A stretch of 40,000 nt of DNA from Metallibacterium scheffleri (GCF_002077135.1 NZ_LDOS01000002.1:1411865-1451864); one strand, 5' to 3'. Numbered from the stretch's first letter, positions 19,723 to 38,075 are shown. Program-made: numbers and translations. The notes: generated by a model not told the origin, from the letters alone.

Positions 19723-21021
19723 TCATGGCTGCGATGCCCCGTCGAGTGTGGCTGAATCCATATCCCGCTCCGGAATTGAAGTGCCGCTTGACAGTGACGA
19801 TCGCCATGTGAACCAAACCGCGACGGCCAGAGAACCCGCAGATGCAGCTACCACCGCCTGCGCTGCACCAAGTACACCCCAGACCGGAATGCCCACGGCC
19901 AACGCTGGAATGCCAACACCTAGACCGACCAACTCGGCGATAGTCGAAGCGAAAGGTCGCCCCATTCCGCGAAGTCCGTCGGCCAACACTCTGTAGACCG
20001 CACCAAGTAATCCGGCGAACGTCAGGGCTTTCAGGATCGGCGATGCGGGCAAGAATGCGCTCCCGTAAACCAAACGCAGCAAGGGAGATGCCCAGAGCAG
20101 GACCACGAGCAAGGCCAATGTTCCACCTAGTCCTGCAATGCCTGCAAACTTTAAGATAATCTTCATCTGTTCCTGGCGCTGGCTGCACTTTGCCACCTCG
20201 GGCAACACGACTTGACCAAGTGCGAAGCCTTGCGCCCGCAATAAACTGGCCCCGGCCAGTGCTGCCATGTACAGCCCAAGATCATGTACTCCAACCAGCA
20301 TCGTCAGCGCCAGCACGTCGATTTGCAGCCCACTGAACGGCTGTAACGTACCGATATGCGCCGACAAGCCGTAGCGCAAGTCGCCCCAGAGCGTCTTCAC
20401 ATCGAACCAGCCAAGGGGGGACTCTTGACCTCGGCGGACCAGCATCGGCAAGGTCAAACTCAATGCCAGGGCCAACGTCAGCACATTGCTCAGCAGATTA
20501 GCTGATACCACGCTTTCCACATTCATGTGGCCAAATGCCCAAAAGAGCACGAGCAGAAGAACATAGCCAGCAGATACACTCAACCTGACTACATTGAATC
20601 TTGCGTACTGCCCGGAGCCCTGTTGGATGGCATTGATGTAAAGCGTGAGCAGATTGAGCGGCACATAAGCCAGTAGATAGAGAACTGCCAGATGTGCCAG
20701 GACGGTGCCGTGACTCGCTAGCACCACGGGCAACAGCCAAATTCCGAGTGCCGCCAGTACCAACCATTGCAGACCCGCTGCAACTAAGCCATTGCCAAGC
20801 AATTGATGGCGCCGCGCAGGCTCTTTGGCGGATGCATAGGTATATGCAACCGGAATACCCACATTACCTAGATAGGCAAAAAGTGCTGCCCAACTGATCA
20901 CCGCAGCCAACTGGCCGCGCCCGTCTGGCCCAAGCCATCGAGCGACCAAGATCCCAGTAACCAAACCGATGAGCTGGATCGCGATCTGGGCACCGCTGGT
21001 GTAGAAAATTGCCCGCCTCAT
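19723..21021 (-). CDS. wzx: Polysaccharide flippase (Wzx / MOP superfamily)
   Basis: Start at MRRAIFYTSGAQIAIQLIGLVTGILVARWLGPDGRGQLAAV, a typical Wzx N-terminus. About 12 TM segments. Confidence 0.7.
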   Translation of the reverse strand: MRRAIFYTSGAQIAIQLIGLVTGILVARWLGPDGRGQLAAVISWAALFAYLGNVGIPVAYTYASAKEPARRHQLLGNGLVAAGLQWLVLAALGIWLLPVVLASHGTVLAHLAVLYLLAYVPLNLLTLYINAIQQGSGQYARFNVVRLSVSAGYVLLLVLFWAFGHMNVESVVSANLLSNVLTLALALSLTLPMLVRRGQESPLGWFDVKTLWGDLRYGLSAHIGTLQPFSGLQIDVLALTMLVGVHDLGLYMAALAGASLLRAQGFALGQVVLPEVAKCSQRQEQMKIILKFAGIAGLGGTLALLVVLLWASPLLRLVYGSAFLPASPILKALTFAGLLGAVYRVLADGLRGMGRPFASTIAELVGLGVGIPALAVGIPVWGVLGAAQAVVAASAGSLAVAVWFTWRSSLSSGTSIPERDMDSATLDGASQP

Positions 21022-21353
21022 GATGGAGGCAAAAATGGAACATGCGCCGCTTGGCGGGCTAAGTCCGCGAAGCCACGACGGCGCTCTCCGATCATCGTGC
21101 GTGCGCGGCACCGCGCGGCTTCGCGTACTGAGCGCGCGGTCATGTCGTTGCCGGCCGACTGCGAGAAGCCCAGATCAGCCATCAACAGATAGGTGGGGAT
21201 GGCCGCCAAGATCAGCCATTCGCCATAGAGCTGCGTGCCCCAGGCGTGCAGCAGGATCGGCACGCCCGCCAACTGGATGACGACGGCCACCAGTTGCCCG
21301 TAGGCGTTGGCGCCCAGGCCATGCAGGATGCGGCGGGTGACGTGGCGATCCAT
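21018..21353 (-). pseudogene. N-terminal fragment (~75 conserved aa) of a second, different flippase gene
   Basis: MDRHVTRRILHGLGANAYGQLVAVVIQLAGVPILLHAWGTQLYGEWLILAAIPTYLLMADLGFSQSAGNDMTA is a Wzx-like TM1-TM2 plus loop motif, followed by unrelated sequence. Its stop overlaps the wzx ATG. Confidence 0.45.
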
Positions 21354-21655: not shown

Positions 21656-21799
21656 TCATCGCGCTTCGGTGCGCGTGATTTCGCGCGCCACGACGCGCGC
21701 GAGGATGCACGGCTGCAACGGCACGAAACCGGCGGCATCGGTCAGGTGACGGCTGAGAGGCGCGCCGTGGCTGGCGCTGTCGCCCGGCACGCGCACGCC
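21656..21799 (-). pseudogene. C-terminal remnant of an MntA-like nucleotidyltransferase gene
   Basis: GVRVPGDSASHGAPLSRHLTDAAGFVPLQPCIL... parallels GVRVLGDSTRHGALLSRHLTDVADFVPLQRRIL of MntA at 23108/25935. A REP lies upstream. Confidence 0.6.
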
Positions 21800-21811
21800 G
21801 AGGGAAACGCG

Positions 21812-21850
21812 AAGAGCGAGATCCTTCGCTGCGCTCAGCAACATGACAAA
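21812..21850 (-). repeat. REP element
   Basis: GAGATCCTTCGCTGCGCTCAGCAACATGAC. Confidence 0.65.
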
Positions 21851-21867
21851 AGCACGGGATGACGCGG

Positions 21868-21903
21868 CGTGAGCATGGTGGCTTGTTCGCGGGTCAGGCA
21901 CAT
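21868..21903 (-). pseudogene. Stub (first ~12 codons) of an eighth small MNT gene
   Basis: CATGGGTTATTCCAAGCC junction and ...GGCTTGTTCGCGGGTCAGGCACAT align with the 5' ends of the seven MNT genes. Cut off by the REP. Confidence 0.55.
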
Positions 21904-21906
21904 GGG

Positions 21907-22383
21907 TTATTCCAAGCCGAGGCCGAAACGCTGGCCGATGTGTTGCAGGATCGTCTCGATGCGGGCGGCAGCGTCGAAGCCTTGATTGAGGTAGGCGGCG
22001 CGCAATGCGGGTTCGTCCGGGTATTCGTGGGCAACGTGGTTGCGCAGGGCGCGCAGTTTTTCCCATGATTCGGTGCTTTCGAGCAGGCCGAGCTTCTCCA
22101 GCCGGTTGAGCTTGTCCAGCATGGGCCGGTCTTCGTAGGGCTCCTGCAGCACATCGAGCACCGCCGGAAACAGACGCGTGTCCAGCACGTCTTGCAGCTT
22201 GCCGAAGCGCAGCACGAATTGATCGATGTCCTGCACGGCGTCATCGTCGAGATCCGCCAGCGTGGCGGCGCTGAGCGGCCTGCGCGGCGCGATGGAGGCC
22301 AGCGCATGGCGCATGTGGTGGCGGTGGCGCAGGGCTTGCCGCCACACGTCCTGCAAGCGCTGTTGATGGGAGTCGCCGCTCAC
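21907..22383 (-). CDS. HEPN-domain protein, HI0074-like (partner type 1, copy 1)
   Basis: GTGA overlap with the upstream MNT. R-x4-H motif LRALRNHVAHEY near the C-terminus. Confidence 0.7.
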   Translation of the reverse strand: MSGDSHQQRLQDVWRQALRHRHHMRHALASIAPRRPLSAATLADLDDDAVQDIDQFVLRFGKLQDVLDTRLFPAVLDVLQEPYEDRPMLDKLNRLEKLGLLESTESWEKLRALRNHVAHEYPDEPALRAAYLNQGFDAAARIETILQHIGQRFGLGLE

Positions 22384-22685
22384 AGCAGCACCCCCGTGAC
22401 CTTGGCGGTCGTGATGATGTCGCGCGCGGCGCCCAGGACCGGTGCGTCGAGGATCAGATCGATCTTTTGTTCGCCAAGCGCGCGTTGCAGTCGTGCCAGC
22501 ATCGCGATGCTGTCGCGGGCCAATGCGTCGGGCTGGGTTTGCGTGGTTTGCACCAGCAAGTCGATGTCGCCGCCGCGCTTGGCATCATCCACGCGCGAGC
22601 CGAACAGCCACACGCGCGCATCGCTGCCGAAGACCTCGGCGGCGGCGCTGCGGATGATGGCGGCTTGTTCGGGAGTCAGTCGCAT
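22380..22685 (-). CDS. Minimal nucleotidyltransferase (MNT), C-terminal type alpha, copy 1
   Basis: MRLTPEQAAIIRSAAAEVFGSDARVWLFGSRVDDAKRGGDIDLL carries the GS..x..DxD NTase motif. Confidence 0.8.
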   Translation of the reverse strand: MRLTPEQAAIIRSAAAEVFGSDARVWLFGSRVDDAKRGGDIDLLVQTTQTQPDALARDSIAMLARLQRALGEQKIDLILDAPVLGAARDIITTAKVTGVLL

Positions 22686-22729
22686 GGGGTCAGCGGGTTT
22701 GCAGGTTGTCATTGGGCATGACGCATGGC

Positions 22730-23123
22730 CTACAGCGCGAACGCGCCGAAATCGTCCAGATGTCGATGCACGATGCGATGCACGATCTGCCAGTCGATGG
22801 CACGGTAGCTGTGCACGGCCACGTTGCGGAAGCCGACCGCGCCGCGCAGGCGTTGCGCAAACCCGGCGTCGAGCACGCCCGCGTCGGCGAGGCGCGCGAA
22901 GGCTTCACCCATGGTTTGCGGCGCGGGCAGTCCGCTGGCGGCAATCCAGTGCGCTGCGATGTCCACGCACAATTGCACGGCGCGCGTCAGATTCACGGCG
23001 ACGATGGTCTTGCGCATCGATGTCACGCGCGAGGTCCTCGGCAAGTGGCGGGCACTTGTCGTGGGGGCGCCGCGTGCATAGCCGCGGCGATTCGACTTTC
23101 TGCTCGATCAGCGCCCGATCCAT
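22730..23123 (-). pseudogene. hepT: HepT (DUF86 HEPN RNase toxin), frameshifted copy
   Basis: Starts MDRALIEQKVES..., then shifts frame. One extra G (GATGGTCTTGCG vs GATGTCTTGCG at ~23005) relative to the intact copy 25537..25950. The RNVAVHSY motif is retained downstream. Confidence 0.75.
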
Positions 23124-23533
23124 CGCTGCCTCCGCGCGTCGAGGATGCGCCTCTGCAGCGGCACGAAGTCGGCCACATCGGTCAGGTGACGGCTGAGCAG
23201 CGCGCCATGCCGGGTGCTGTCGCCCAGCACGCGCACACCGTGGCTGAGGATTTGCCCGAGCAACAGCTCGCCGGCAGCGGCCAGGTCGATCAGGTCCACC
23301 GGGCGGCCGGTGGCCATCGCCAGATCGCTGATCAGGGCGATGATCTCGTCGGCGTGCAGCGGTCGATCGGCGCCCACGGCCAGATCGAGGTCGCTGTCGG
23401 GCCGCGCCGTGCCGCGCGCCAGCGATCCGAACAACATCGCGAAGTTCACCTGCGGGTGCCGCGCCAGCACGGCGCGCAGTTGGCTGGCCAGCGGCTCGGG
23501 CGCGATGGGGTTGGGCTGCGCGGTCATGTTCAC
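23108..23533 (-). CDS. mntA: MntA-type nucleotidyltransferase antitoxin (type VII TA), copy 1
   Basis: FAMLFGSLARGTARPDSDLDLAV is the GSxxRG..DxD motif. GTGA overlap with the upstream small MNT. Overlaps the hepT start. Confidence 0.8.
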   Translation of the reverse strand: MNMTAQPNPIAPEPLASQLRAVLARHPQVNFAMLFGSLARGTARPDSDLDLAVGADRPLHADEIIALISDLAMATGRPVDLIDLAAAGELLLGQILSHGVRVLGDSTRHGALLSRHLTDVADFVPLQRRILDARRQRWIGR

Positions 23534-23829
23534 AGCTCGATCCCGGTTTCATGAGCGATACGCACGATGGCGCGGGTGTCATCGGGGTGCTGGATGACGA
23601 CATCGATCTTGCGCTCGCCGAGGCTTTCCTCGAGCTTGCCGAGAAAGCGCACCTTGCGCATGAAAGACTCGACTGCGGGCAGTTGCGCGGCTTCGATCAG
23701 CAGATCGATATCGCCGCCGCGCTTGCTGTCGTCCACGCGCGAGCCGAACAGCCACACGCGCGCGTCGCTGCCGAATACCTCGGCGGCGGCGCTGCGGATG
23801 ATGGCGGCTTGTTCGGTGGTCAGGCGCAT
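23530..23829 (-). CDS. Minimal nucleotidyltransferase (MNT), C-terminal type beta, copy 1
   Basis: Conserved N-terminal 44 aa followed by IEAAQLPAVESFMRKVRFLGKLEESLGERKIDVVI... Confidence 0.8.
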   Translation of the reverse strand: MRLTTEQAAIIRSAAAEVFGSDARVWLFGSRVDDSKRGGDIDLLIEAAQLPAVESFMRKVRFLGKLEESLGERKIDVVIQHPDDTRAIVRIAHETGIEL

Positions 23830-23832
23830 GGG

Positions 23833-24309
23833 TTATTCCAAGCCGAGGCCGAAACGCTGGCCGATGCGTTGCAGGATCGTCTCGATGCTGGCGGCCGCGT
23901 CGAAGCCTTGATTGAGGTAGGCGGCGCGCAATGCGGGTTCGTCCGGATACTCGTGGGCAAAGTGGTTGCGCAGGGCGCGCAGTTTTTCCCATGATTCGGT
24001 GCTTTCGAGCAGGCCGAGTTTCTCCAGCCGGTTGAGCTTGTCCAGCATGGGCCGGTCTTCATAGGGCTCTTGCAGCACATCGAGCAAGGCCGGAAACAGG
24101 CGCGTGCCCAGCACGTCTTGCAGCTTGCCGAAGCGCAGCACGAATTGATCGATGTCCTGCACGGCGTCATCGTCGAGATCCGCCAGCGTGGCGGCGCTGA
24201 GCGGCCTGCGCGGCGCGATGGAGGCCAGCGCATGGCGCATGTGGTGGCGGTGGCGCATGGCTTGCCGCCACACGTCCTGCAAGCGCTGTTGATGGGAGTC
24301 GCCGCTCAC
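23833..24309 (-). CDS. HEPN-domain protein, HI0074-like (partner type 1, copy 2)
   Basis: Differs from 21907..22383 at roughly half a dozen of 158 residues by eye. LRALRNHFAHEY motif. Confidence 0.7.
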   Translation of the reverse strand: MSGDSHQQRLQDVWRQAMRHRHHMRHALASIAPRRPLSAATLADLDDDAVQDIDQFVLRFGKLQDVLGTRLFPALLDVLQEPYEDRPMLDKLNRLEKLGLLESTESWEKLRALRNHFAHEYPDEPALRAAYLNQGFDAAASIETILQRIGQRFGLGLE

Positions 24310-24611
24310 AGCAGCACCCCCGTGGCCTTGGCGGTCGTGATGATGTCGCGCGTGGCGCCCAGGACCGGTGCGTCGAGGATCAGATCGATCTTTTGTTCGC
24401 CCAGTGCGCGATGCAGCCGGGCCAGCATCGCGATGCTGGCCCGGGCCAGTGCGTCGGGCTGGGTTTGCGCGGTTTGCACCAGCAGGTCGATGTCACCACC
24501 GCGCTTGCTATCGTCCACGCGCGAGCCGAACAGCCACACGCGCGCGTCGCTGCCGAATACCTCGGCGGCGGTGCTGCGGATGATGGCGGCTTGTTCGGGG
24601 GTCAGACGCAT
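24306..24611 (-). CDS. Minimal nucleotidyltransferase (MNT), type alpha, copy 2
   Basis: Last 101 codons of ORF 24306..25298. ATG at 24611. Confidence 0.8.
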   Translation of the reverse strand: MRLTPEQAAIIRSTAAEVFGSDARVWLFGSRVDDSKRGGDIDLLVQTAQTQPDALARASIAMLARLHRALGEQKIDLILDAPVLGATRDIITTAKATGVLL

Positions 24612-24625
24612 GGGTGGGATTGGAT

Positions 24626-25111
24626 TCAAGGCGCGTGCGGATTCGCGGGCAACAGGCCCAACCGCCGGCCGAGACTGCGCAGGCGCAGAATCACACCGGC
24701 CAGGATCTCGGTGGCCTCGCGGATGGCCTGCAGCACCTCGGGCATGGCAGCGGCTTCGAGGTCGTAATCGTGGGTGAGGCGATTGCGCAGGGCGCGCAGT
24801 TCCATCCACACCTCGGCCTGCTCGATCAAGTCCTGACGCACCGCCCAGTCGATCACGTCCGCGAAGCCGCGATAGCGCTCGCCGATCATCGCGTGGGCGT
24901 GCCGCAGCGCGGCGGAGAGCTGGTCCTGCAGCTTGGTGTAGCGGTCGTTGATGGATGCCAGGCGCTCGAGCACCTCGGCATTGTCGAGATCGCCGGGCGC
25001 GAGCGCCTTGGGCAGGCGCTCCAGCGAATAACGCAAACCCGACTCGATGCGCGTCAGCACCTGCAGTTGCTGTTGCAGCAGGGCCTGCTGCTGGGCGAAC
25101 AGGGCGCTCAT
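24626..25111 (-). CDS. HEPN-domain protein, HI0074-like (partner type 2)
   Basis: ATGA-coupled start at 25111 (MSALFAQQQALL...). LRALRNRLTHDY motif. Confidence 0.7.
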   Translation of the reverse strand: MSALFAQQQALLQQQLQVLTRIESGLRYSLERLPKALAPGDLDNAEVLERLASINDRYTKLQDQLSAALRHAHAMIGERYRGFADVIDWAVRQDLIEQAEVWMELRALRNRLTHDYDLEAAAMPEVLQAIREATEILAGVILRLRSLGRRLGLLPANPHAP

Positions 25112-25410
25112 GCCAGCGGCACTCCGGTGAGGCGCGCGATTTCGTGGATGGGTTGCGGACGGGTGCCCACCGCGCGCACCACGATGTCGATGCGCTGCTC
25201 GCCCAGCCGTTGCTGCAGCAGGCTCCACAGCCGTGCTTGCCGCTGCACCACCGAAGCACTGGTTTGCGCGGTTTCCAAATACAGGTCGATGTCACCACCG
25301 CGCTTGGCGTCGTCCACGCGCGAGCCGAACAGCCACACGCGCGCGTCCGCGCCGAAGACCTCGGCGGCGGCGCTGCGGATGATGGCGGCTTGTTCGGGGG
25401 TCAGGCGCAT
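25108..25410 (-). CDS. Minimal nucleotidyltransferase (MNT), type gamma
   Basis: Conserved N-terminus followed by YLETAQTSASVVQRQARLWSLLQQRLGEQRIDIVV... The ATG at 25410 is preferred over the upstream TTG. Confidence 0.8.
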   Translation of the reverse strand: MRLTPEQAAIIRSAAAEVFGADARVWLFGSRVDDAKRGGDIDLYLETAQTSASVVQRQARLWSLLQQRLGEQRIDIVVRAVGTRPQPIHEIARLTGVPLA

Positions 25411-25436
25411 GGGGCTGTTCAATGGGCTGCGGAGTG

Positions 25437-25525
25437 AGACTGAGATCCTGCGCTGCGCTCAGGATGACACGGCGGAAGCGCGGAGAAGCGCAGGTGTCTT
25501 TCGCTGCGCTCAGGATGACTGACCA
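25437..25525 (-). repeat. Two REP elements between hepT copy 2 and MNT-gamma
   Basis: GATCCTGCGCTGCGCTCAGGATGAC and TCTTTCGCTGCGCTCAGGATGAC. Confidence 0.7.
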
Positions 25526-25536
25526 TTTGCAGGTTG

Positions 25537-25950
25537 TCATTGGGCATGACGCATGGCCTCCAGCGCGAACGCGCCGAAATCATGCAGGTGCCGATGCACG
25601 ATGGTGTGCACGATCTGCCAATCGATGGCGCGGTAGCTGTGCACGGCCACGTTGCGGAAGCCGACCGCGCCGCGCAGGCGTTGCGCAAGCCCGGCGTCGA
25701 GCACGCCCGCGTCGGCGAGGCGCGCGAAGGCTTCGCCCATGGTTTGCGGCGCGGGCAGTCCGCTGGCGGCAATCCAGTGCGCTGCGATGTCTACGCACAA
25801 TTGCACGGCGCGCGTCAGATTCACGGCGACGATGTCTTGCGCGTCGATGTCACGCGCGAGGTCCTCGGCACGTGGCGGGCACTTGTCGTGGATGCGCTGC
25901 GTGCATAGCCGCAGCGATTCGACTTTCTGCTCGATCAGCGCCCGATCCAT
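25537..25950 (-). CDS. hepT: HepT (DUF86 HEPN RNase toxin), intact copy
   Basis: 137 aa; MDRALIEQKVESLRLC... with GFRNVAVHSY (the RNxxxH HEPN motif). Confidence 0.8.
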   Translation of the reverse strand: MDRALIEQKVESLRLCTQRIHDKCPPRAEDLARDIDAQDIVAVNLTRAVQLCVDIAAHWIAASGLPAPQTMGEAFARLADAGVLDAGLAQRLRGAVGFRNVAVHSYRAIDWQIVHTIVHRHLHDFGAFALEAMRHAQ

Positions 25951-26360
25951 CGCCGCCTCCGCGCGTCGAGGATGCGCCGCTGCAGCGGCACGAAGTCGGC
26001 CACATCGGTCAGGTGGCGGCTGAGCAGCGCGCCATGCCGGGTGCTGTCGCCCAGCACGCGCACGCCGTGGCTGAGGATTTGCCCGAGCAACGGCTCGCCG
26101 GCAGCGGCCAGGTCGATCAGATCCACCGGGCGGCCGGTGGCCATGGCCAGATCGCTGATCAGGGCGATGATCTCGTCGGCGTGCAGCGGTCGATCGGCGC
26201 CCACGGCCAGATCGAGGTCGCTGTCGGGCCGCGCCGTGCCGCGCGCCAGCGATCCGAACAACATCGCGAAGTTCACCTGCGGGTGCCGCGCCAGCACGGC
26301 GCGCAGTTGGCTGGCCAGCGGCTCGGGCGCGATGGGGGTGGGCTGCGCGGTCATGTTCAC
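25935..26360 (-). CDS. mntA: MntA-type nucleotidyltransferase antitoxin, copy 2
   Basis: 141 aa. Three differences from copy 1 by eye. Confidence 0.8.
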   Translation of the reverse strand: MNMTAQPTPIAPEPLASQLRAVLARHPQVNFAMLFGSLARGTARPDSDLDLAVGADRPLHADEIIALISDLAMATGRPVDLIDLAAAGEPLLGQILSHGVRVLGDSTRHGALLSRHLTDVADFVPLQRRILDARRRRWIGR

Positions 26361-26656
26361 GGCTCGATCCCGGTTTCATGGGCGATACGCACGCTGGCGC
26401 GGGTGTCGCCGGGGTGCTGGATGACGACATCGATCTTGCGCTCGCCGAGGCTTTCCTCGAGCTTGCCGAGAAAGCGCACCTTGCGCATGAAAGTCTCGAC
26501 GGCGGGCAGTTGCGCGGCTTCGATCAGCAGGTCGATGTCGCCGCCGCGCTTGGCGTCGTCCACGCGCGAGCCGAACAGCCACACGCGCGCGTCGCTGCCG
26601 AAGACCTCGGCGGCGGCGCTGCGGATGATGGCGGCTTGTTCGGGGGTCAGGCGCAT
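26357..26656 (-). CDS. Minimal nucleotidyltransferase (MNT), type beta, copy 2
   Basis: ATG at 26656. About 6 aa differences from 23530..23829. Confidence 0.8.
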   Translation of the reverse strand: MRLTPEQAAIIRSAAAEVFGSDARVWLFGSRVDDAKRGGDIDLLIEAAQLPAVETFMRKVRFLGKLEESLGERKIDVVIQHPGDTRASVRIAHETGIEP

Positions 26657-26683
26657 GGGCTGGTTCAATGGGCGGCGGCGTGT

Positions 26684-26715
26684 AACCGGGATCCTTCGTT
26701 GCGCTCAGGATGACA
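26684..26715 (-). repeat. REP element between the intron 3' end and MNT-beta copy 2
   Basis: GGATCCTTCGTTGCGCTCAGGATGACAG. Confidence 0.65.
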
Positions 26716-26795
26716 GGGAACCTGAGGTGCGATGCGGCTGCATGTCAACTCGAATCCGATAGGGGTCGGGAAGGCTCATCACCTCCCCGCCCTCC

Positions 26796-26828
26796 GAACC
26801 GTGCGTGCGGTTCTCCCGCACACGGCTC
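26796..26828 (-). ncRNA. Group II intron domain V
   Basis: The reverse complement is identical to 1222..1254. Confidence 0.8.
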
Positions 26829-26845
26829 TCCAGTGGGTGGTTGCT

Positions 26846-28177
26846 TCATCGAGATCGGCACGCCAAGGCATGGGCTTGGGTTAACGTGAAAAGCCCCTGC
26901 TGAGCGAAGTAGCTATTGGGCCAGCGCTGATGGTCCTCGCGGGTGTGACCGTGCCCACGCCGACCCTCGTATGCACGAAGGATAGAGCGCAGACGCCGGC
27001 GGATAAACCCGTCGAGCTTGCTGAAAGTGATCCGGTGGGCATGCCTGAAGTACTGGTACCAGCCCCGCAGCATCGGGTTGATCTGGCTGATGATGCTCGC
27101 CAGCGAACGCCCCTTGGTACGCGGCGTGTGCTGTCGAATTTTGTCCAGCATCGCGTTCCAGCTCTTCGTGCGTACCCGGCGTTGACCGGCCTCGAACCGA
27201 TAGCCCAGAAACTCGAACCCGCGGCCTACCTGTCGGCAGTCGCCGACGTGGGTCTTGTCCGGGTGCAAGGTCAGCTCGTGGGCGTCCACCCACGTGCCAA
27301 TCTCGGCCAGCGCACGTTGCGCCTCATCCGCGGTCTGACACAGCACCACGAAGTCATCGGCATAACGCACCATCCGATAGCCGCCTGCGGCCATCGTCTC
27401 GTCGAGCCCATGCAGGTAGATATTGGACAACAGCGGACTGATCACCGCACCCTGCGGCGTACCGCCCGTGGGGATCCAGCGTTCCAGTCCCGCCATCACT
27501 TCCTGCTTGAGCCACGATTCCAGCAAGCGCAGTACGCGGCCATCCGCGATCTGCTCGCGCACCCGCGCCATCAGACCGGCGTGCGGAATGCTGTCAAAGT
27601 AGCCGGCAAGGTCGGCATCCACCACATGGCAATACCCCGCCCGCAGCAGTGCATCCACCTCCCGCAGCGCACGCTTGGCACCGCGGCCGGGCCGAAACCC
27701 GTAGCTGTGTGCGCAAAAGATCGACTCGAAGATCGGCTCAATCACCAGCCGTACCGCCGTTTGCACCACGCGATCCTTCACCGTCGGTATCCCCAGTGGA
27801 CGGGTTTGGCCCCGCCCTTTGGGAATCTCGACCCGCCTGATCGCTTGGGGCCGGTACGTGTCACTGCGCAGCGCCCTCGCCAGCTCGTCGAGGTAGCGCT
27901 CGGCATGGGCCGCGAACGCGTCCACACTTTGACGATCCACCCCGGCCGCTCCGCAATTGCGCACCACCCGTCCCCACGCCGCTTGCAGCGTCGCCGGACG
28001 CATCACCTTGTCCATCAGGCTGAACCATTTTCCTCCCTTCACGCCGTTGTCCAGCGCTGCCAACATTCGGTCCGTCCATACCGAGGCTTCCACCCAACTC
28101 CAATCGCGAGTCTGGGTATCTTCATCGTGCTTAGCCGTTACCGGCACTTGCGATGAGTTTGCGTGCATCGTTCTCAA
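26846..28177 (-). CDS. Group II intron-encoded reverse transcriptase/maturase
   Basis: 443 aa. RT blocks include [14 protein letters not shown] and YADDFVV. Maturase X domain with RGWYQYF. No HNH/En extension. Confidence 0.9.
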   Translation of the reverse strand: MRTMHANSSQVPVTAKHDEDTQTRDWSWVEASVWTDRMLAALDNGVKGGKWFSLMDKVMRPATLQAAWGRVVRNCGAAGVDRQSVDAFAAHAERYLDELARALRSDTYRPQAIRRVEIPKGRGQTRPLGIPTVKDRVVQTAVRLVIEPIFESIFCAHSYGFRPGRGAKRALREVDALLRAGYCHVVDADLAGYFDSIPHAGLMARVREQIADGRVLRLLESWLKQEVMAGLERWIPTGGTPQGAVISPLLSNIYLHGLDETMAAGGYRMVRYADDFVVLCQTADEAQRALAEIGTWVDAHELTLHPDKTHVGDCRQVGRGFEFLGYRFEAGQRRVRTKSWNAMLDKIRQHTPRTKGRSLASIISQINPMLRGWYQYFRHAHRITFSKLDGFIRRRLRSILRAYEGRRGHGHTREDHQRWPNSYFAQQGLFTLTQAHALACRSR

Positions 28178-28604
28178 CCTCCCGAATCCACCTTCCTGCC
28201 TCCCTTCCCTCCACGCGGTTTTGCTAGCCGCGCTTCGCGGACCTCAACTCAAGATCCTGCGGTACTACGAAGGCTCTGACTCCCGCACCCGTTCACATCG
28301 GGCGCGGGTCTCCCCGCTTACTGCATCGCACCTTCCCAATGTTCCGTCCCCAACCACACGGTGTGCCCGATCATCGCTTTGACAGCCACCTCAGCGTGAT
28401 CGGTGAGTTCCAGGCTTCGCCATGAATGAGCAGGCTCGCCGCAACACCCCGCCGAAACGGGTTCGCTTTACTACGGACCATCAGTTCGCTTCCGGTTGCT
28501 CTCCACCCCGCCTCTCAGCGACGCAGTTACCTTCAACTACAGGGCCTGTGGCTTGCCCCGACGCGGATTTGCACCGCGCTGATACGATGCCCTCACGGGC
28601 GCAC

Positions 28605-28812
28605 TCATTCCCGCGAAGGCGGGAATCCAGTGACACTTGCGGACTGGATGACCAGCTTCGCTGTTGGTGAAGCGCCTCCCGCCTGCGCGGGGATGACGAG
28701 GCGAAAGCGCGGGATGGCAGTTTTCAGTTGTCATGCTGAGGCCGACGGCCGAAGCATCTCGCCTTGGGGCGTGGCGATGACGCGAAAAGCGAGATCCTTC
28801 GCTGCGGTCACT
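28605..28812 (-). repeat. REP-rich tract upstream of the intron, including the target hairpin
   Basis: On the minus strand, CACTGGATTCCCGCCTTCGCGGGAATGA lies immediately 5' of the intron GTGCG. A second CCCGCCTGCGCGGGG hairpin lies at ~28672..28697, along with two GATCCTTCGCTGCG-type REPs. Confidence 0.7.
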
Positions 28813-28932
28813 CTCCAGGGCCGGCAAATCGGGCGCCGGCTGGCGACGCCAGTCCGCAACTGACTCGGTGAGTACGCGGGCGTGCTGGTCGGCTTCCCAG
28901 GCAGCGGCAGCAAGTCGGTTGTGCGCGATCAT
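28810..28932 (-). pseudogene. HEPN partner (type 3) of MNT-delta, truncated after ~40 codons
   Basis: ATGA-coupled start. MIAHNRLAAAAWEADQHARVLTESVADWRRQPAPDLPALE, then only REP-derived sequence. No R-x4-H motif remains. Confidence 0.5.
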
Positions 28933-29246
28933 GCGTCCACCATCAGGATGCCGTGGCGCTGGGCCTCGGCCACCACGGGGCGTGGATCGGGCTCGCCCTG
29001 CGCGGTGATCACCATATCGATGCGCTGCTCGCCAAGGCTGCGATACAGGCGTGCGGCATAACGTGTGCGACGCCGCACCAGCTCGGCAGGCGCGAGCCGA
29101 TCACGGGTTTCGATCAGCAGATCGATGTCGCCGCCGCGCCTGGCGTCGTCCACGCGCGAGCCGAACAGCCACACGCGCGCGTCCGTGCCGAAGACCTCGG
29201 CGGCGGCGCTGCGGATGATGGCGGCTTGTTCGGGGGTCAGGCGCAT
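28929..29246 (-). CDS. Minimal nucleotidyltransferase (MNT), type delta
   Basis: Conserved N-terminus followed by IETRDRLAPAELVRRRTRYAARLYRSLGEQRIDMVI... Confidence 0.8.
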   Translation of the reverse strand: MRLTPEQAAIIRSAAAEVFGTDARVWLFGSRVDDARRGGDIDLLIETRDRLAPAELVRRRTRYAARLYRSLGEQRIDMVITAQGEPDPRPVVAEAQRHGILMVDA

Positions 29247-29250
29247 GGGG

Positions 29251-29739
29251 TCAGTGCTCCTCGATCAGGCCGCGACGCGTGAGATCGGCCAGCAGGGCGC
29301 GCGCGGCCCTGGCAAGTATGTGCAGATGCGCGTGCGCCGTCTGCAGTGCATCGGCCAGTATGGCCGGGTCTTCGATGTAGTCGTGCACCATGCGATTGCG
29401 CAATTGGCGCAGCGCCATCCAGTGCTCGGCAGACTCGATGATGCGCCAGCGTTCGGCACGATCGAGGTTGTCCGTCATCGGCCCGACAGGCTCACCGAGC
29501 GCGGCGAGCCATGCCGGCAGCAGCTTGTCGCCAACCGTATCCTGCAGGCGGCCGAAACGGCTGACGAAGGCATCCACGCGCTCGGCCAAGTCGGCATCCT
29601 GGCGTAGTGCAAGTGCTTGCACGGGCGTGAAGGGCACGGCGAACAGTCGCTGATCGGTGGCCTCGGCGTGCGCGACCTCGCGCGCCACGACACGCGCGAG
29701 GAATTGCAAACGTTGCCGCAAATCCGCGGGTGTATTCAC
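29251..29739 (-). CDS. HEPN-domain protein, HI0074-like (partner type 4)
   Basis: GTGA-coupled start at 29739. LRQLRNRMVHDY motif. Confidence 0.7.
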   Translation of the reverse strand: MNTPADLRQRLQFLARVVAREVAHAEATDQRLFAVPFTPVQALALRQDADLAERVDAFVSRFGRLQDTVGDKLLPAWLAALGEPVGPMTDNLDRAERWRIIESAEHWMALRQLRNRMVHDYIEDPAILADALQTAHAHLHILARAARALLADLTRRGLIEEH

Positions 29740-30035
29740 AAGCTCACCCCCTGGCTTCTGGCGATATCGTGAATGGGCAGGCGCAGCAGATCCGGCGCTA
29801 ACAGCAACACATCCACTTTGCGTCCATGCAGGCCGCGTTGCACGCGTGCAGCCATGCGCGCGGCGCTGAACGCAGGGTTGGCAATGGGCTGGTCGCATTC
29901 GATCAGCAGGTCGATGTCGCCGCCGCGCTTGGCGTCGTCCACGCGCGAGCCGAACAGCCACACGCGCGCATCGCTGCCGAACACCTCGGCGGCGGCGCTG
30001 CGGATGATGGCGGCTTGTTCGGGAGTCAGGCGCAT
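29736..30035 (-). CDS. Minimal nucleotidyltransferase (MNT), type epsilon (first gene of the array)
   Basis: Conserved N-terminus followed by IECDQPIANPAFSAARMAARVQRGLHGRKVDVLLL... Confidence 0.8.
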   Translation of the reverse strand: MRLTPEQAAIIRSAAAEVFGSDARVWLFGSRVDDAKRGGDIDLLIECDQPIANPAFSAARMAARVQRGLHGRKVDVLLLAPDLLRLPIHDIARSQGVSL

Positions 30036-30043
30036 GGGTCTGT

Positions 30044-31564
30044 TCAATGGGCTGCGGAATGAGGCCAGGATCCTGCGCCGCGCCCGGCACCCACAATCGT
30101 TTCCAGGCGATGCCTCGATTCCCGTCCTCTGGAGCTTAGATCGACCTTGCCGCCGCGCGCCAACCAGGCGCACAGTATCGCCAGCGTGGCCTCCAGCGCC
30201 AGCGTGCGCAGCGCGTAATCGACCGTGGCGTGCAGCAGCAGCACCAGCACGCCCGCGGCCGCGGCGCGCGCGATCAGCGCGGACAGCGTGGCGTTGCCAG
30301 CGGATGGATCGTCAGCGATCGGCGCGCGCCACGCACGCAGGCTGCGCCACGCCCATCCACCCACGAAGGCCAGCATCAGCAGCAGCGCGGGGATGCCACC
30401 TTCCAGCCACAGCTCGAGGTAGTCGTCGTGGGCGTGGTTGACGTAGGGCGGGATCAGCGTGGCGCGCGCCTGGAACTGCGGCAGCACATGCACGAAGCTG
30501 CCGATGCCGCTACCCAGAAAGCCATAGTGTTGGGCGGCGATCCAGGTGGTGCGCATGATCCACCAGCGCGCATCCTCGAACGGGTCCTGATGCAAGCGCG
30601 CCAGCACCGCGTACAGGCCCCACTGCAGCGCCAGCATGGCGATGACCAGCAACGCCAGCGCCATGCGCCGTACCAGCCGCGGCTTGACCTGGCCGGCGCG
30701 CCAGGCCAGCACCACGATGGCGACCAGGGTCAACGCGCCCAGCGCCACGCCGGCGCGCGATTGCGTCAGCAGCAGCGCCACCAGCAGGGTCGCCAGCGTG
30801 ACCCACCACGCCGCCATGACCAGCATGCGACGCGCCGCGCGCGCACCCGGCTGCAGCCACAGCGCGATCAGCCAGGCGGCGCTCAGCAGCATGCCGATGT
30901 TGAGCAGGTCGGCGAAATGATCGCGATTGGCGAAGAAGCCCTCGGCGCTGGTGCGCTGGGTGTAGGCGAACAGCCGCAACGGGCTGTCCGGCCCACCCGC
31001 CACCTGCGCGAAACCCAGCAGCGCGCCGGCCAGCGCCAGCAGCGGGATCAGCAGGGTGAGGCGCAGCAATTCGCGCCGCGAGAGCGTGAGCGCGGCCAGG
31101 AACAGGGCCGCCGCCGGCAGCATGGCCAGCCACGCACGCCAGGTGCCGGCCGGATCGAGGCTGAGCGGCGCCCAGTGCGGCGCGATGCCGACGCTGGCCT
31201 GGTCCGCGGCCAGCGCGGCGCGACCGGGCAACGCGGTCCACAGAGCGGGCGGCAACGGCAGCAACTGCAGCAGGGGCAACAGCAGCACCGCCAGCAGCAG
31301 GATGCATTCGGCGCGATGGTCACGCAGCAGGTGCGCGGGCCACGCCGCCACCAGCAGCACCGCCAGCAACAGACCCAGCGCGATGACGATGGCGTCGCCG
31401 GGCAGGCCTTGCATGGTGCCGCCGCCGAGCAGCAGGGCCGCGGCCAGCACCAGCATGGCGCAGGCTGCGATCAGCCGCTGCGGCCAGGATCGGGCGTGAT
31501 CGGAGTGCGCGGTGGTTGAAACGAACGCGGCCCGGCGCAAGGCCGGGCCGGGGATCGTGACCAT
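30044..31564 (-). CDS. O-antigen ligase-like (Wzy_C/WaaL-family) polytopic membrane protein
   Basis: 506 aa with many TM segments and an LLTQSRAGVALGAL-type loop motif. The last ~15 codons run into the conserved MNT leader and REP sequence. Confidence 0.6.
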   Translation of the reverse strand: MVTIPGPALRRAAFVSTTAHSDHARSWPQRLIAACAMLVLAAALLLGGGTMQGLPGDAIVIALGLLLAVLLVAAWPAHLLRDHRAECILLLAVLLLPLLQLLPLPPALWTALPGRAALAADQASVGIAPHWAPLSLDPAGTWRAWLAMLPAAALFLAALTLSRRELLRLTLLIPLLALAGALLGFAQVAGGPDSPLRLFAYTQRTSAEGFFANRDHFADLLNIGMLLSAAWLIALWLQPGARAARRMLVMAAWWVTLATLLVALLLTQSRAGVALGALTLVAIVVLAWRAGQVKPRLVRRMALALLVIAMLALQWGLYAVLARLHQDPFEDARWWIMRTTWIAAQHYGFLGSGIGSFVHVLPQFQARATLIPPYVNHAHDDYLELWLEGGIPALLLMLAFVGGWAWRSLRAWRAPIADDPSAGNATLSALIARAAAAGVLVLLLHATVDYALRTLALEATLAILCAWLARGGKVDLSSRGRESRHRLETIVGAGRGAGSWPHSAAH

Positions 31565-36535: not shown

Positions 36536-38075
36536 AGCGCTTTGGGGCCATTTCTTGCCCTCTCATGCGGCCTGCGCCGCCATGGCGGACGGATCTGTCC
36601 CCCAACCGATGAGTTGCGGTGCCAGCGCGGCGGTGCGCAACAGGTTGTGCGCCAGCACGAACAGGCCCACCACCGAGCGGACCTTGGCCAAGCCACGCAC
36701 GGGCATGCGCAGCAGGCCTCGGTTACGCGCCTGGGCGTTGACGCATTCGGCGGTTGCCGCGCGCTGCTTGTAGATGTCCCTGGCCTCGCTGCCGGCCATG
36801 CGCACGCGCCACTGGGCCACCGCCTCGGAGTCATCGGGCTTGGGTTGGTGCTTGTCCTGCGCGACCTCCTTGCCCTGCGCGTCCTGCTTCGTCCTGGGTT
36901 CTGGCACCGGCGCGTAGACCTTGGTCCTGCCGGCCACCGCATCGATCTGCTCGTGCGCGGGGAAGCCGCCATCGACCAGCCACTGCTCCGGGCTGCGCCC
37001 CAGGCGCTGCGCGACCTGCTCGACCATCGGCGCCAGTTGCGCCATGTCGCTGCCGGCGGTGACCACGTCCATGCCGACGATGACCTGTTCTTCGCAGGTG
37101 GTGGCAAACTGCACGTTGAACGCCGGACGGAAACCGCCGTCGCCCATCTTCATGACCCGCGCGTCGGCGTCGGTGGTGCTCGCTCTGGCGTCTTCGGCCC
37201 TGGAGCCGTTGCGCTTCTTGGCAGCGGCCACTTCAGGCAGTTGCTCCAGCGCCGCCTGGATGCGCGCTTCGCGCTCCCGGGCCGCGCGCAGCTTGGCCGC
37301 CTGCGCTTGCCGCCGGGCTTGACCCGGATCGGCCTGGGCCTGCGTCTTGATCGTCTGCACCAGCTCGCGGGCCTGGCTCAGGTGGTCGTCCAGGCTGGCT
37401 TGGCGGCGGAACGAGGCGGCACCCGCAGCGGCGCGAACGCGCATGCCGTCCTGCGCCACGCGCTGCAAGGTGATCGCACCCACCGCGGCCAGGGCGGCTA
37501 CGTTATCCGTGAGCAGCTCGTCCATCAGCGCTTCGTTGCCCGCACGAAAATCATTGAGCGCGTGATAGTTCACCGACACGCCGCCGCAAATCCACCGGTA
37601 CGCATCGTGCTCCAGGCTCAGCCGCGCCACTTCGCGGCCGCTGCCCACACCGTCCAGCGTGGCGTACAGCCACAGTGCGAACAGAATGCGCGGGTCGATC
37701 GCCGCACGACCGGCGTTGCTGCCGCGCGCCTTGACCGCCTCGATCAACCGACTCAGGTCCTGACGCTCGACGTAACCCCACACCAGTCGCGCCCGGTGGT
37801 CCTCGGGCAACAACGATTCCAGGTCCGAGGCGCGCAGCTCCACCTGCAAACGGTTGGGTTCGAGCAATCGCGGCGCGCCTTGCTCTCGCTGCATCGCCGC
37901 CTTGGCCTGCGCCTCCCGTACCTGGGCTTCGCTGGGCTCGGGCAGGTCCAGAAACAGGCCTGTCTGCGTCGCCGCCGGGTCATGCTCAGTGGATGTCGTC
38001 ATGCTCGCTATCATGCCTGCCGCACAACCGTTTGGGTGGCTCAGAGAAAAACTCTCACCCTCTCAGGCCCCAGCA
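36536..38075 (-). mobile_element. IS1182-family (IS5-like) insertion sequence, ~1.54 kb (boundaries approximate)
   Basis: Single 483-aa DDE transposase. Short imperfect terminal inverted repeats (..GCTTTGGGGCC / GGCCCCAGC..). Flanked by an imperfect 9-10-bp direct repeat, GCGCTGGCTG / GCGCGGCTG. Confidence 0.6.
36563..38014 (-). CDS. IS1182-family transposase
   Basis: N-terminal LLPEDHRARLVWGYVERQDLSRL...GRAAIDPRILFALWLYATLDGVGSGREVARL is the DUF772-type block typical of IS1182/IS5, followed by a C-terminal DDE region. Confidence 0.8.
   Translation of the reverse strand: MIASMTTSTEHDPAATQTGLFLDLPEPSEAQVREAQAKAAMQREQGAPRLLEPNRLQVELRASDLESLLPEDHRARLVWGYVERQDLSRLIEAVKARGSNAGRAAIDPRILFALWLYATLDGVGSGREVARLSLEHDAYRWICGGVSVNYHALNDFRAGNEALMDELLTDNVAALAAVGAITLQRVAQDGMRVRAAAGAASFRRQASLDDHLSQARELVQTIKTQAQADPGQARRQAQAAKLRAAREREARIQAALEQLPEVAAAKKRNGSRAEDARASTTDADARVMKMGDGGFRPAFNVQFATTCEEQVIVGMDVVTAGSDMAQLAPMVEQVAQRLGRSPEQWLVDGGFPAHEQIDAVAGRTKVYAPVPEPRTKQDAQGKEVAQDKHQPKPDDSEAVAQWRVRMAGSEARDIYKQRAATAECVNAQARNRGLLRMPVRGLAKVRSVVGLFVLAHNLLRTAALAPQLIGWGTDPSAMAAQAA

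Follow-up and report, generated by a model that had tools for sequence, protein, structure and literature searches.

A tandem array of type VII-like MNT–HEPN cassettes in Metallibacterium scheffleri with antitoxin 5′ ends probably homogenised by gene conversion

How can seven neighbouring genes share almost the same DNA over their first 44 codons and then, within the reading frame, lose most of their resemblance to one another? The question is raised by a locus of Metallibacterium scheffleri at which small genes for MNT nucleotidyltransferases, each coupled to a downstream partner gene, stand in tandem on the minus strand (table 1). The window analysed here, a stretch of 40,000 nucleotides (nt), places this array between a Wzy_C/waaL-like gene and the flippase gene wzx of a Wzx/Wzy polysaccharide cluster, whose CpsB, Wza, Wzc-type kinase, glycosyltransferase and methyltransferase genes lie on the same strand as the array. 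An earlier note on this DNA had described one shared 5′ module (here termed the head), five unrelated 3′ halves (here termed tails) and a strict pairing of each tail with its own HEPN protein, and had likened the whole to the module arrays of polymorphic toxin loci. We conclude that the array probably consists of type VII-like MNT–HEPN cassettes in which about 135 bp at the 5′ end of the MNT genes is under ongoing gene conversion between paralogues.

The anatomy of the array is largely as first described. Seven minus-strand MNT genes of about 100 codons were verified at the starts proposed for them, an eighth is reduced to a head stub of 29 nt, and all seven overlap the downstream gene by 4 nt (ATGA or GTGA), in agreement with the claimed translational coupling. 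Five tail types, alpha to epsilon, were recovered, and the alpha and beta cassettes are each present twice, with copies that are 95.1% and 96.4% identical, respectively. In the order of transcription, the epsilon MNT and HEPN genes are followed by the delta MNT gene with a HEPN remnant, by REP-like (repetitive extragenic palindrome) repeats and a group II intron, and by the beta2 MNT gene with genes for MntA and HepT; then come the gamma pair, the alpha2 pair, the beta1 MNT gene with mntA and a frameshifted hepT, the alpha1 pair and, last, the stub with decayed fragments. The gap between a HEPN stop codon and the next MNT start is 3–14 nt unless a REP-like spacer is present, and a scan of the array for promoters and terminators returned no promoter-like or convincing terminator-like site, none exceeding shuffle expectation.

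The sharing of the head is a property of the DNA. Codons 1–44 are 89–98% identical at the nucleotide level in all 21 pairs of genes. Between tail types, mean nucleotide identity is 0.87–1.00 over codons 1–40, drops to 0.74 over codons 41–48 and lies at 0.34–0.61 beyond, while the 45 nt upstream of the ATG give 0.33–0.45. Where two types encode the same amino acid, the codon is identical in 665 of 757 cases (88%) in the head and in 186 of 335 (56%) in the tail, the latter being the codon-bias baseline of a 67% G+C genome. If protein-level constraint alone held the head together, its synonymous sites should be as diverged as the rest, a possibility raised in the earlier note; they are homogeneous, so protein constraint does not suffice. 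Nor does head identity follow tail type (alpha1 versus alpha2, 91.7%; alpha1 versus epsilon, 96.2%), and the heads are not identical, differing from one another by 2–11%. These differences form a mosaic: in a four-gamete test on the seven window heads alone (132 nt), 18 of 45 informative site pairs fail, adjacent cassettes have variants in common (gamma and alpha2 at nt 114 and 117; alpha2 and beta1 at nt 103–104), and the amino acid variants A8V, S21T/A and A35S are likewise shuffled among heads. Synonymous homogeneity, mosaic heads and shared alleles uphold the proposal that the identity boundary inside the gene is a signature of recombination at the DNA level. Among the refuting outcomes named in the earlier note, none of those examined here was observed.

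A second strain is represented by L121, an M. scheffleri metagenome contig with an upstream flank 99.3% identical to that of the window. Between orthologous cassettes of the two, heads differ at 46 of 792 sites (5.8%) and the remainder of the cassette at 56 of 3574 (1.6%; Fisher p=2e-10), and four of the six orthologous tails are 99.4–100% identical. At 39 of the 46 differing head sites, each of the two alleles recurs in further paralogous heads. On average, heads are as distant from each other within one genome (8.6) as between genomes (8.9) or as orthologues (7.7), and Val8, present in four of the six L121 heads and in none of the window, is a lineage-specific state common to paralogues.

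The direction of change can be read from more distant relatives. A family-wide baseline was drawn from the matches listed in a scan of a genome collection with a degenerate WLFGSRVDD pattern, Metallibacterium not being among them. In six other genomes with linked copies of the MNT family, again among the matches listed, the heads are 48–64% identical in amino acids and 50–61% in nucleotides, so homogeneity is derived and lineage-specific and not a family property. Within the family the head is the most conserved part, holding 21 of 24 invariant columns in residues 1–43 (40 homologues), which explains why DNA identity stayed high enough for recombination to start in the head and not in the tail. 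Among the sequences sampled, delta lacks a clear relative elsewhere, while the epsilon, beta and gamma tails have their nearest relatives in other genomes: for epsilon, the first copy in L016, an unclassified Proteobacteria metagenome-assembled genome (MAG; 64% identity), and a Thermithiobacillus copy (L039; 60%), and for beta an Aromatoleum copy (L107; 58%). Elsewhere, tails of these three types (in L039, L107, several MAGs, L016 and L095) bear different heads. The nearest neighbours of a head are always paralogues of the same genome, and tails group by type across genomes. Because the tail relatives carry other heads, what took place was 5′ homogenisation among existing paralogues. The tails are anciently diverged paralogous subfamilies, and the earlier rejection of simple paralogy has to be withdrawn, as has the description of the 3′ halves as unrelated and unalignable: aligned as proteins they are 24–40% identical (13–22 of 54–57 positions) and have an LGE(Q/R)(K/R)ID motif in common. 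A metagenome scan with an invariant 32-mer of the head gave three matches only and no further arrays.

The encoded proteins place the cassettes near type VII toxin–antitoxin (TA) systems. The small MNTs have the motif G29-S30-x9-D40-x-D42, with a spacing one residue shorter than the GSX10DXD carried by both MntA copies. Their third catalytic aspartate, D76, is invariant across 40 homologues and is sited in the LGE(Q/R)(K/R)ID motif; since it belongs to the tail, the head is not the complete catalytic module. In an AlphaFold model of the alpha1 MNT (predicted local distance difference test score, 80), the head encodes helix 1, strand 1, the GS loop and strand 2, the boundary coincides with the end of strand 2 (residues 41–46), and the tail comprises helix 2 (52–70), strand 3 (75–80) and helix 3 (88–97). 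The top Foldseek match of the model is HI0073 (1NO5), followed by the MNT of Legionella pneumophila (8XEO/8XEH), and by sequence the alpha1 MNT matches HI0073 at E=0.0015 with 28% identity. The alpha1, beta1, delta and epsilon MNTs score 21.1–28 bits against PF01909 (cutoff 21 bits) and the gamma MNT 18.7. With the NCBIfam model for MntA (NF047752), four of the five small MNTs scanned reach 20.4–24.1 bits and gamma has no match; the equivalog cutoff of 60 bits is cleared only by the 141-residue MntA (89.6) and by HepT (138.5) of the beta cassette. Because MntA and HepT pass these cutoffs and the small MNTs do not, the seven cassettes are classed here, on sequence grounds, as an HI0073/HI0074-like branch, as yet unnamed, of type VII-like systems.

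The HEPN partners are one family, 32–38% identical across types. An alignment of eight partners (alpha, gamma and epsilon; delta and a further type, zeta, from L121; and those of L016) shows an R-N-x3-H-x-Y motif with R, N, H and Y unchanged throughout, and the motif is found in HepT too and is missing from the cut delta partner of the window. Class I HEPN/MNT pairs have been defined by an RX4HXY protein encoded next to a GS...DXD nucleotidyltransferase, and in them MntA poly-AMPylates the tyrosine of RX4HXY and silences the HEPN RNase (PMC7641770). By analogy, the HEPN partners are putative toxins, and MNT-dependent AMPylation of their motif tyrosine is predicted. The alpha partner had been called HI0074-like; the likeness emerges from a profile of the HEPN partners and extends to all of them (against HI0074, 1JOG, E=7.6e-6), whereas alpha alone found no match in the PDB. 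Likewise, the description of the gamma, delta and epsilon partners as R-x4-H HEPN proteins of about 160 residues stands for gamma and epsilon but not for delta: only 45 of its codons are real in the window, where a 131-codon open reading frame (ORF) runs on into repeats and intron, and the intact protein of 159 residues is found in L121. Against Pfam, gamma scores 27.2 with PF08780 (cutoff 31.8), epsilon 20.7 with PF01934 (cutoff 23.5) and alpha has no match; for the HI0073/HI0074 family, TIGR01987 gives 25 bits against a cutoff of 55.8. PADLOC returned only weak nucleotidyltransferase-domain matches to the candidate families PDC-S09 and PDC-M05A, which are uninformative.

The locus also varies between strains in gene content. 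Differences in cassette content or order, which the earlier note had proposed to look for in related genomes, are found in all seven related contigs that carry family cassettes beside wzx and/or Wzy_C genes, each with its own set or order. L121 has epsilon, delta (intact), beta with MntA/HepT, gamma, alpha, beta-prime with a zeta HEPN, and a stub; L128 and L130 have MntA/HepT, beta with zeta, alpha and gamma-prime; L134 has delta, mazEF, alpha and gamma, with three stubs; L133 has delta and beta with MntA/HepT; L122 has delta, a beta MNT gene split by repeats, and MntA/HepT; and L132 has alpha and gamma-prime. Relative to L121, the window has lost zeta and most of the delta HEPN gene and has gained repeats, the intron, a second MntA/HepT pair (96.4%) and a second alpha cassette (95.1%), the alpha1 duplicate carrying with it the first 29 nt of the following head.

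Pairing between tail and partner, held to be strict, is so for the alpha, gamma, delta and epsilon tails, which co-vary with HEPN type, but not for beta. The beta MNT had been assigned a canonical MntA and HepT pair, seen twice; two such pairs are present, yet the beta1 HepT gene is frameshifted and the beta tail elsewhere accompanies zeta. This sixth HEPN type (161–168 residues) is coupled to the L121 orthologue of beta1 and to beta-type MNTs in L128, L130 and L016. As beta tails pair with zeta elsewhere, MntA and HepT are a separate, complete TA pair behind the beta MNT, and zeta is probably the original beta partner, given that the beta tail pairs with either zeta or MntA/HepT and that L016 again has zeta. 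In the beta1 HepT gene, an additional C near 23006 (CAAGACCATCG versus CAAGACATCG in beta2 and L121) splits the ORF, and this is either a pseudogene or a sequencing error.

Two sets of observations bear on the history of the locus. Head stubs occur also in L121 (at 12371), L122 (10034), L134 (8501, 9669 and 9865) and L128 (6072). Six stubs from four genomes are cut at one point, between ATGCGCCTGACCCCCGAACAAGCCGCCAT and GC[T/C]C...CCTCGTCATCC, and joined to REP-like or MITE-like (miniature inverted-repeat transposable element) units, which might be explained by a single ancient insertion followed by copying, or by the repeat element favouring this target site; the L128 stub is different, being cut at codon 22 and joined to another repeat. 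Outside the genus, L016 has an epsilon MNT and HEPN pair and then a beta MNT with a zeta HEPN, directly upstream of a wzx-like gene. Its two linked cassettes have a head sequence of their own, with heads 89% identical in nucleotides and tails 29% (ungapped), a similar homogenisation. In L018 (Acidithiobacillus concretivorus), a truncated beta-type MNT gene lies directly upstream of a wzx-like gene. The beta-type heads of L016 and L018 are nearly identical to each other, and an ORF of about 120–130 codons with no family assigned stands upstream of the cassettes in both; this likeness points to a habit common to bacteria of acid habitats or to horizontal spread between them.

The preferred explanation would run as follows. 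Each cassette would consist of a nucleotidyltransferase antitoxin of about 100 residues and a HEPN RNase toxin of about 160, with the motif tyrosine as the expected site of AMPylation. The tail types and their HEPN partners would be old, co-inherited subfamilies, and repeated gene conversion in short tracts among tandem paralogues would have made the first 135–140 bp or so alike within the genome, halting where similarity ends (segmental concerted evolution). The resulting direct repeats, about 93% identical and 0.8–2.6 kb apart, would be substrates for unequal crossing-over, and a head-to-head exchange would be in frame, removing or copying a tail with its own toxin and leaving no orphan toxin behind. 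The head repeats plausibly mediate some of the gain, loss and reordering of cassettes; we infer, besides this head-mediated rearrangement, that partner specificity is borne by the tail and that the cassettes are co-transcribed with the polysaccharide operon. The marks of concerted evolution are found together: the segment groups by genome and the rest by orthology group, synonymous sites are homogenised, polymorphism is mosaic and the ends are sharp.

Several observations weigh against this explanation. L121 and most of the comparators are metagenome assemblies (L121 from short reads), in which mis-phasing of the 135-bp repeats may inflate the head differences between orthologues; the four-gamete result, drawn from window heads alone, is unaffected by these assemblies. 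Some junctions fall within heads, as in the stub, but beta1 and beta2 cease to be homologous some 10 nt ahead of the alpha1 start, outside any head, and the switch from beta-prime to MntA is located at the MNT 3′ end, so heads are one recombination substrate among several. The alpha and beta duplicates are 4–5% diverged, which exceeds the divergence between window and L121 and makes the duplication old or imported; no closer donor was found among the available contigs. The scores of the small MNTs fall well short of the MntA equivalog cutoff, and the function of their subfamily is predicted from sequence. Finally, the recurrence in L016 and L018 could point to selection for the architecture rather than to a passive process.

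That last thought, taken further, gives an alternative in which the constant head is maintained by selection as a homologous-recombination handle for the capture, shuffling and exchange between strains of tail-plus-toxin cassettes, after the manner of an integrase-free integron or of the orphan arrays of polymorphic toxins. It has in its favour that cassette content and order vary in every related contig, that the array lies where the conserved and the non-homologous halves of the polysaccharide locus meet, that the L016 architecture and the truncated L018 copy are likewise directly upstream of wzx, and that the anatomy would allow in-frame head-to-head exchange with tail and toxin kept together. 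It is nevertheless doubtful: all cassettes are complete genes that each begin with their own start codon and head, silent headless modules and a single expression site are absent, the tail subfamilies have other heads of their own in other genomes, the heads are 2–11% diverged, several junctions lie outside them, and passive conversion with unequal crossing-over covers all the data without selection for evolvability. Similar doubt attaches to the fuller proposal that the head is selected as an in-frame handle, that the Wzy–Wzx junction is an integrase-free platform, that heads are interchangeable with specificity residing wholly between helix 2 and the C-terminus, and that L016 and L018 are convergent or horizontally spread. 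On the same grounds the constant head fused to exchangeable tails, as in a polymorphic toxin, is given up, each cassette being complete with its own start codon and head; the array holds no headless silent modules, single expression site, secretion domain or dedicated recombinase.

Other readings look to the head itself. It might be a nucleic-acid signal, such as an mRNA hairpin hiding the start codon, an operator or a recombinase site, whose DNA is kept alike by selection; all heads (e.g. 29901–30045) are predicted to form the same long hairpin, with the AUG region paired to GCGCGUGG about 90 nt downstream, and to the eye the MNT genes have no obvious Shine–Dalgarno sequence. This is improbable, as the folding z-scores of −0.2 to −1.9 against dinucleotide shuffles are not significant, variable sites are mosaic and common to paralogues instead of compensatory, no recombinase or integrase is present among the window ORFs scanned with Pfam, and the greater divergence of orthologous heads than of tails goes unexplained. 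Protein-level constraint with GC-rich codon bias, and no DNA exchange at all, could appeal to the head as the most conserved part of the family and to the 56% of identical codons that codon bias yields by itself, but it is contradicted by the 88% found in the head, by the low head identity (48–64%) tolerated in linked copies elsewhere, and by the four-gamete failures, shared polymorphisms and shuffled amino acid variants, and we hold it to be highly improbable. An integron-type or other site-specific cassette array is barely conceivable. Small, mostly promoterless TA cassettes in tandem on one strand are indeed found in chromosomal integrons, and a group II intron lies within the array behind a stem-loop; certain bacterial introns of this group are known to integrate behind stem-loops or at attC sites. 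But the Pfam-scanned ORFs of the 40-kb window (almost all of at least 150 codons) include no integrase, the 3–14 nt gaps are too small for attC, the longer spacers lack inverted repeats, and what is repeated is the beginning of a coding sequence; for want of an integrase among these ORFs and of attC room or inverted repeats, the integron was ruled out as a candidate.

Among known systems, the cassettes resemble the type VII HepT/MntA pair of Shewanella oneidensis (SO_3166/SO_3165; PMC7641770) in having the MNT gene 5′ of the HEPN gene, the G-S...D-x-D motif and an R-x4-H-x-Y motif with its acceptor tyrosine, and the two MntA/HepT pairs of the beta cassettes are true members of that type. The small MNTs differ from S. 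oneidensis MntA in their length of about 100 residues, their GSX9DXD spacing, the want of a long C-terminal helix and scores of 20–24 bits against the cutoff of 60, and their HEPN partners, unlike HepT, are of the HI0074/PF08780 kind and not of PF01934. The closest solved relatives of both partners are HI0073 and HI0074 of Haemophilus influenzae (1NO5 and 1JOG), which, unlike the array, are a single pair, at 28% identity and with a TIGR01987 score of 25 against 55.8. The L. pneumophila MNT–HEPN module (8XEO/8XEH; PMC11586414) also has a short MNT, of about 108 residues and without helix alpha4, and is among the best structural matches; its MNT contacts HEPN through helix alpha2 and the alpha2–beta3 loop (PMC11586414), an interface that corresponds to residues 52–74 of the variable tail here and by analogy with which partner recognition is placed in the tail. 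It is, however, a single pair at 18–21% sequence identity, with no shared-head phenomenon described. Several MNT–HEPN modules at one locus are known from extremophilic crenarchaea (Anantharaman et al. 2013, PMC3710099), where the subfamilies are different and no homogenised 5′ segment or strain-level cassette turnover is reported (PMC3710099).

As an evolutionary process, the array is like other cases of concerted evolution in its within-genome resemblance beyond history, mosaic shared polymorphisms and sharp tract boundaries. Segmental concerted evolution by gene conversion is known from tufA/tufB, from the opa and pil loci and from the PE/PPE genes of Mycobacterium tuberculosis. In the last of these, gene conversion takes place among paralogues (PMC13061034). 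The present case departs from them in that the tract is the N-terminal half of an antitoxin only and spans five old subfamilies, each with its own toxin. Arrays of orphan toxin–immunity modules are characteristic of contact-dependent inhibition (CDI) and Rhs loci. These are similar in the succession of conserved and variable segments, in the cognate partner genes and in recombination between the conserved segments, but the array has no large secreted protein, no single expressed gene and no headless orphans, all cassettes being complete; its variable part is the C-terminal half of a nucleotidyltransferase antitoxin (helix 2, strand 3 and helix 3), and the gene downstream encodes a HEPN toxin. 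A polymorphic toxin locus of the CDI/Rhs type was ruled out, there being no headless orphans; truncation here has, on the contrary, left only head stubs.

Table 1. Features of the array and its borders, listed in the direction of transcription; positions are those of the window.
Feature	Position	Strand	Remarks
Wzy_C/waaL-like gene	30044–31564	−	
Epsilon MNT, 99 aa	29736–30035	−	First cassette; starts 8 nt past the Wzy_C/waaL-like gene; PF01909, 24.7 bits
Epsilon HEPN, 162 aa	29251–29739	−	RNRMVHDY; 4-nt GTGA overlap with epsilon MNT
Delta MNT, 105 aa	28929–29246	−	
Delta HEPN remnant, 45 codons	28796–28932	−	Homology to intact 159-aa L121 gene stops at 28796
REP/MITE-like repeats	28598–28795	−	GTCATCC...GCGCAGGCGGGA stem-loops; replace remainder of delta HEPN
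Group II intron	26758–28597	−	5′ end (GTGCG) placed by eye; absent from L121
Intron reverse transcriptase/maturase ORF	26846–28177	−	
Intron domain V/VI	26759–26830	−	
Beta2 MNT, 99 aa	26357–26656	−	
Canonical MntA, 141 aa	25935–26360	−	GSX10DXD; NF047752, 89.6 bits (cutoff 60)
Canonical HepT, 137 aa	25537–25950	−	NF047751, 138.5 bits (cutoff 60)
Gamma MNT, 100 aa	25108–25410	−	126-nt REP-like spacer ahead of gene
Gamma HEPN, 161 aa	24626–25111	−	RNRLTHDY
Alpha2 MNT, 101 aa	24306–24611	−	
Alpha2 HEPN, 158 aa	23833–24309	−	RNHFAHEY
Beta1 MNT, 99 aa	23530–23829	−	Orthologue is L121 beta-prime, there partnered by zeta HEPN
Second MntA copy, 141 aa	23108–23533	−	
Second HepT copy (beta1), frameshifted	22730–23123	−	1-nt insertion near 23006
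Alpha1 MNT, 101 aa	22380–22685	−	
Alpha1 HEPN, 158 aa	21907–22383	−	RNHVAHEY
Head stub, first 29 nt of an MNT gene	21875–21903	−	Joined to REP-like repeats; same junction in L121, L122 and L134
Decayed remains	21656–21874	−	
REP-like unit in decayed remains	21807–21837	−	
MntA gene 3′ part in decayed remains	21694–21803	−	84% identical to intact copies
Short epsilon-HEPN-like piece in decayed remains	21663–21705	−	
wzx 5′ fragment, type of L121/L130/L133	21132–21359	−	Homology to those strains ends abruptly at 21132
Polysacc_synt flippase (wzx)	19723–21111	−	Followed by glycosyltransferases and methyltransferases

The surroundings of the cassettes are rich in repeats and in traces of exchange. 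REP-like elements of the GTCATCCTGAGCGCAGCGAAGGATC and GTCATCCCCGCGCAGGCGGGA types fill the longer spacers (25411–25536, 26657–26757, 28598–28795 and 21807–21837) and yield spurious ORFs on both strands (e.g. ‘...ILRCAQDD...’). A search of the window with Rfam gave two matches only, both to group II introns; the second copy, at 134–1292 on the plus strand, is 99.9% identical over 1159 nt, the first 133 nt being unalignable, and the intron in the array begins directly after a 20-nt stem-loop (28605–28624 / 28677–28696). Past 21132 there is a different wzx and glycosyltransferase set without DNA homology to L121, and because the upstream flank is 99.3% identical and the downstream side has no homology, the array is placed at the junction between the conserved and the strain-specific part of the polysaccharide locus. 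Overlapping the wzx start, 57 nt (21063–21119) match a portion of the gamma HEPN gene (24857–24913) at 81% identity and may be the relic of a cassette that once stood ahead of wzx, like gamma-prime in L128, or a chance resemblance. Further upstream, a DDE transposase gene (DDE_Tnp_1_6, DUF772; 36563–38014, minus strand) lies between the Wza-like and CpsB genes, and the Wza-like ORF beside it is short (186 codons). Other TA genes are found at this site in related contigs: RelB/YafQ and ParE pairs upstream in L134 (560–2580), a MazE/PemK pair inside the MNT array of L134 (6703–7334) and PIN-domain pairs around the same Wzy_C gene in L128 (245–1406). The Wzy_C site looks like a general parking place for TA systems.

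MNT–HEPN pairs, the type VII mechanism and multi-gene MNT/HEPN clusters were already known (PMC7641770, PMC3710099, PMC2701414). A literature search for gene conversion or tandem HEPN/MNT arrays found no paper on homogenisation of N-terminal halves across subfamilies or on this array, the nearest being a remark on multi-gene MNT/HEPN clusters in crenarchaea (PMC3710099). The array is an unusual form of an ordinary evolutionary process; it is no new kind of system, and there is no switching of the polymorphic-toxin kind. Within its family, it is a natural experiment on the specificity of type VII antitoxins for their toxins, since five old MNT subfamilies have been given one N-terminal half while keeping their own C-terminal halves and HEPN partners; the head would accordingly be predicted to be functionally interchangeable, with partner recognition in helix 2 and beyond. 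It also offers a clean case of segmental concerted evolution inside TA genes, together with its consequences between strains, namely head divergence, cassette turnover and leftover stubs, and it identifies the Wzy–Wzx junction as a spot, prone to recombination, at which TA cassettes, repeats and a group II intron have accumulated.

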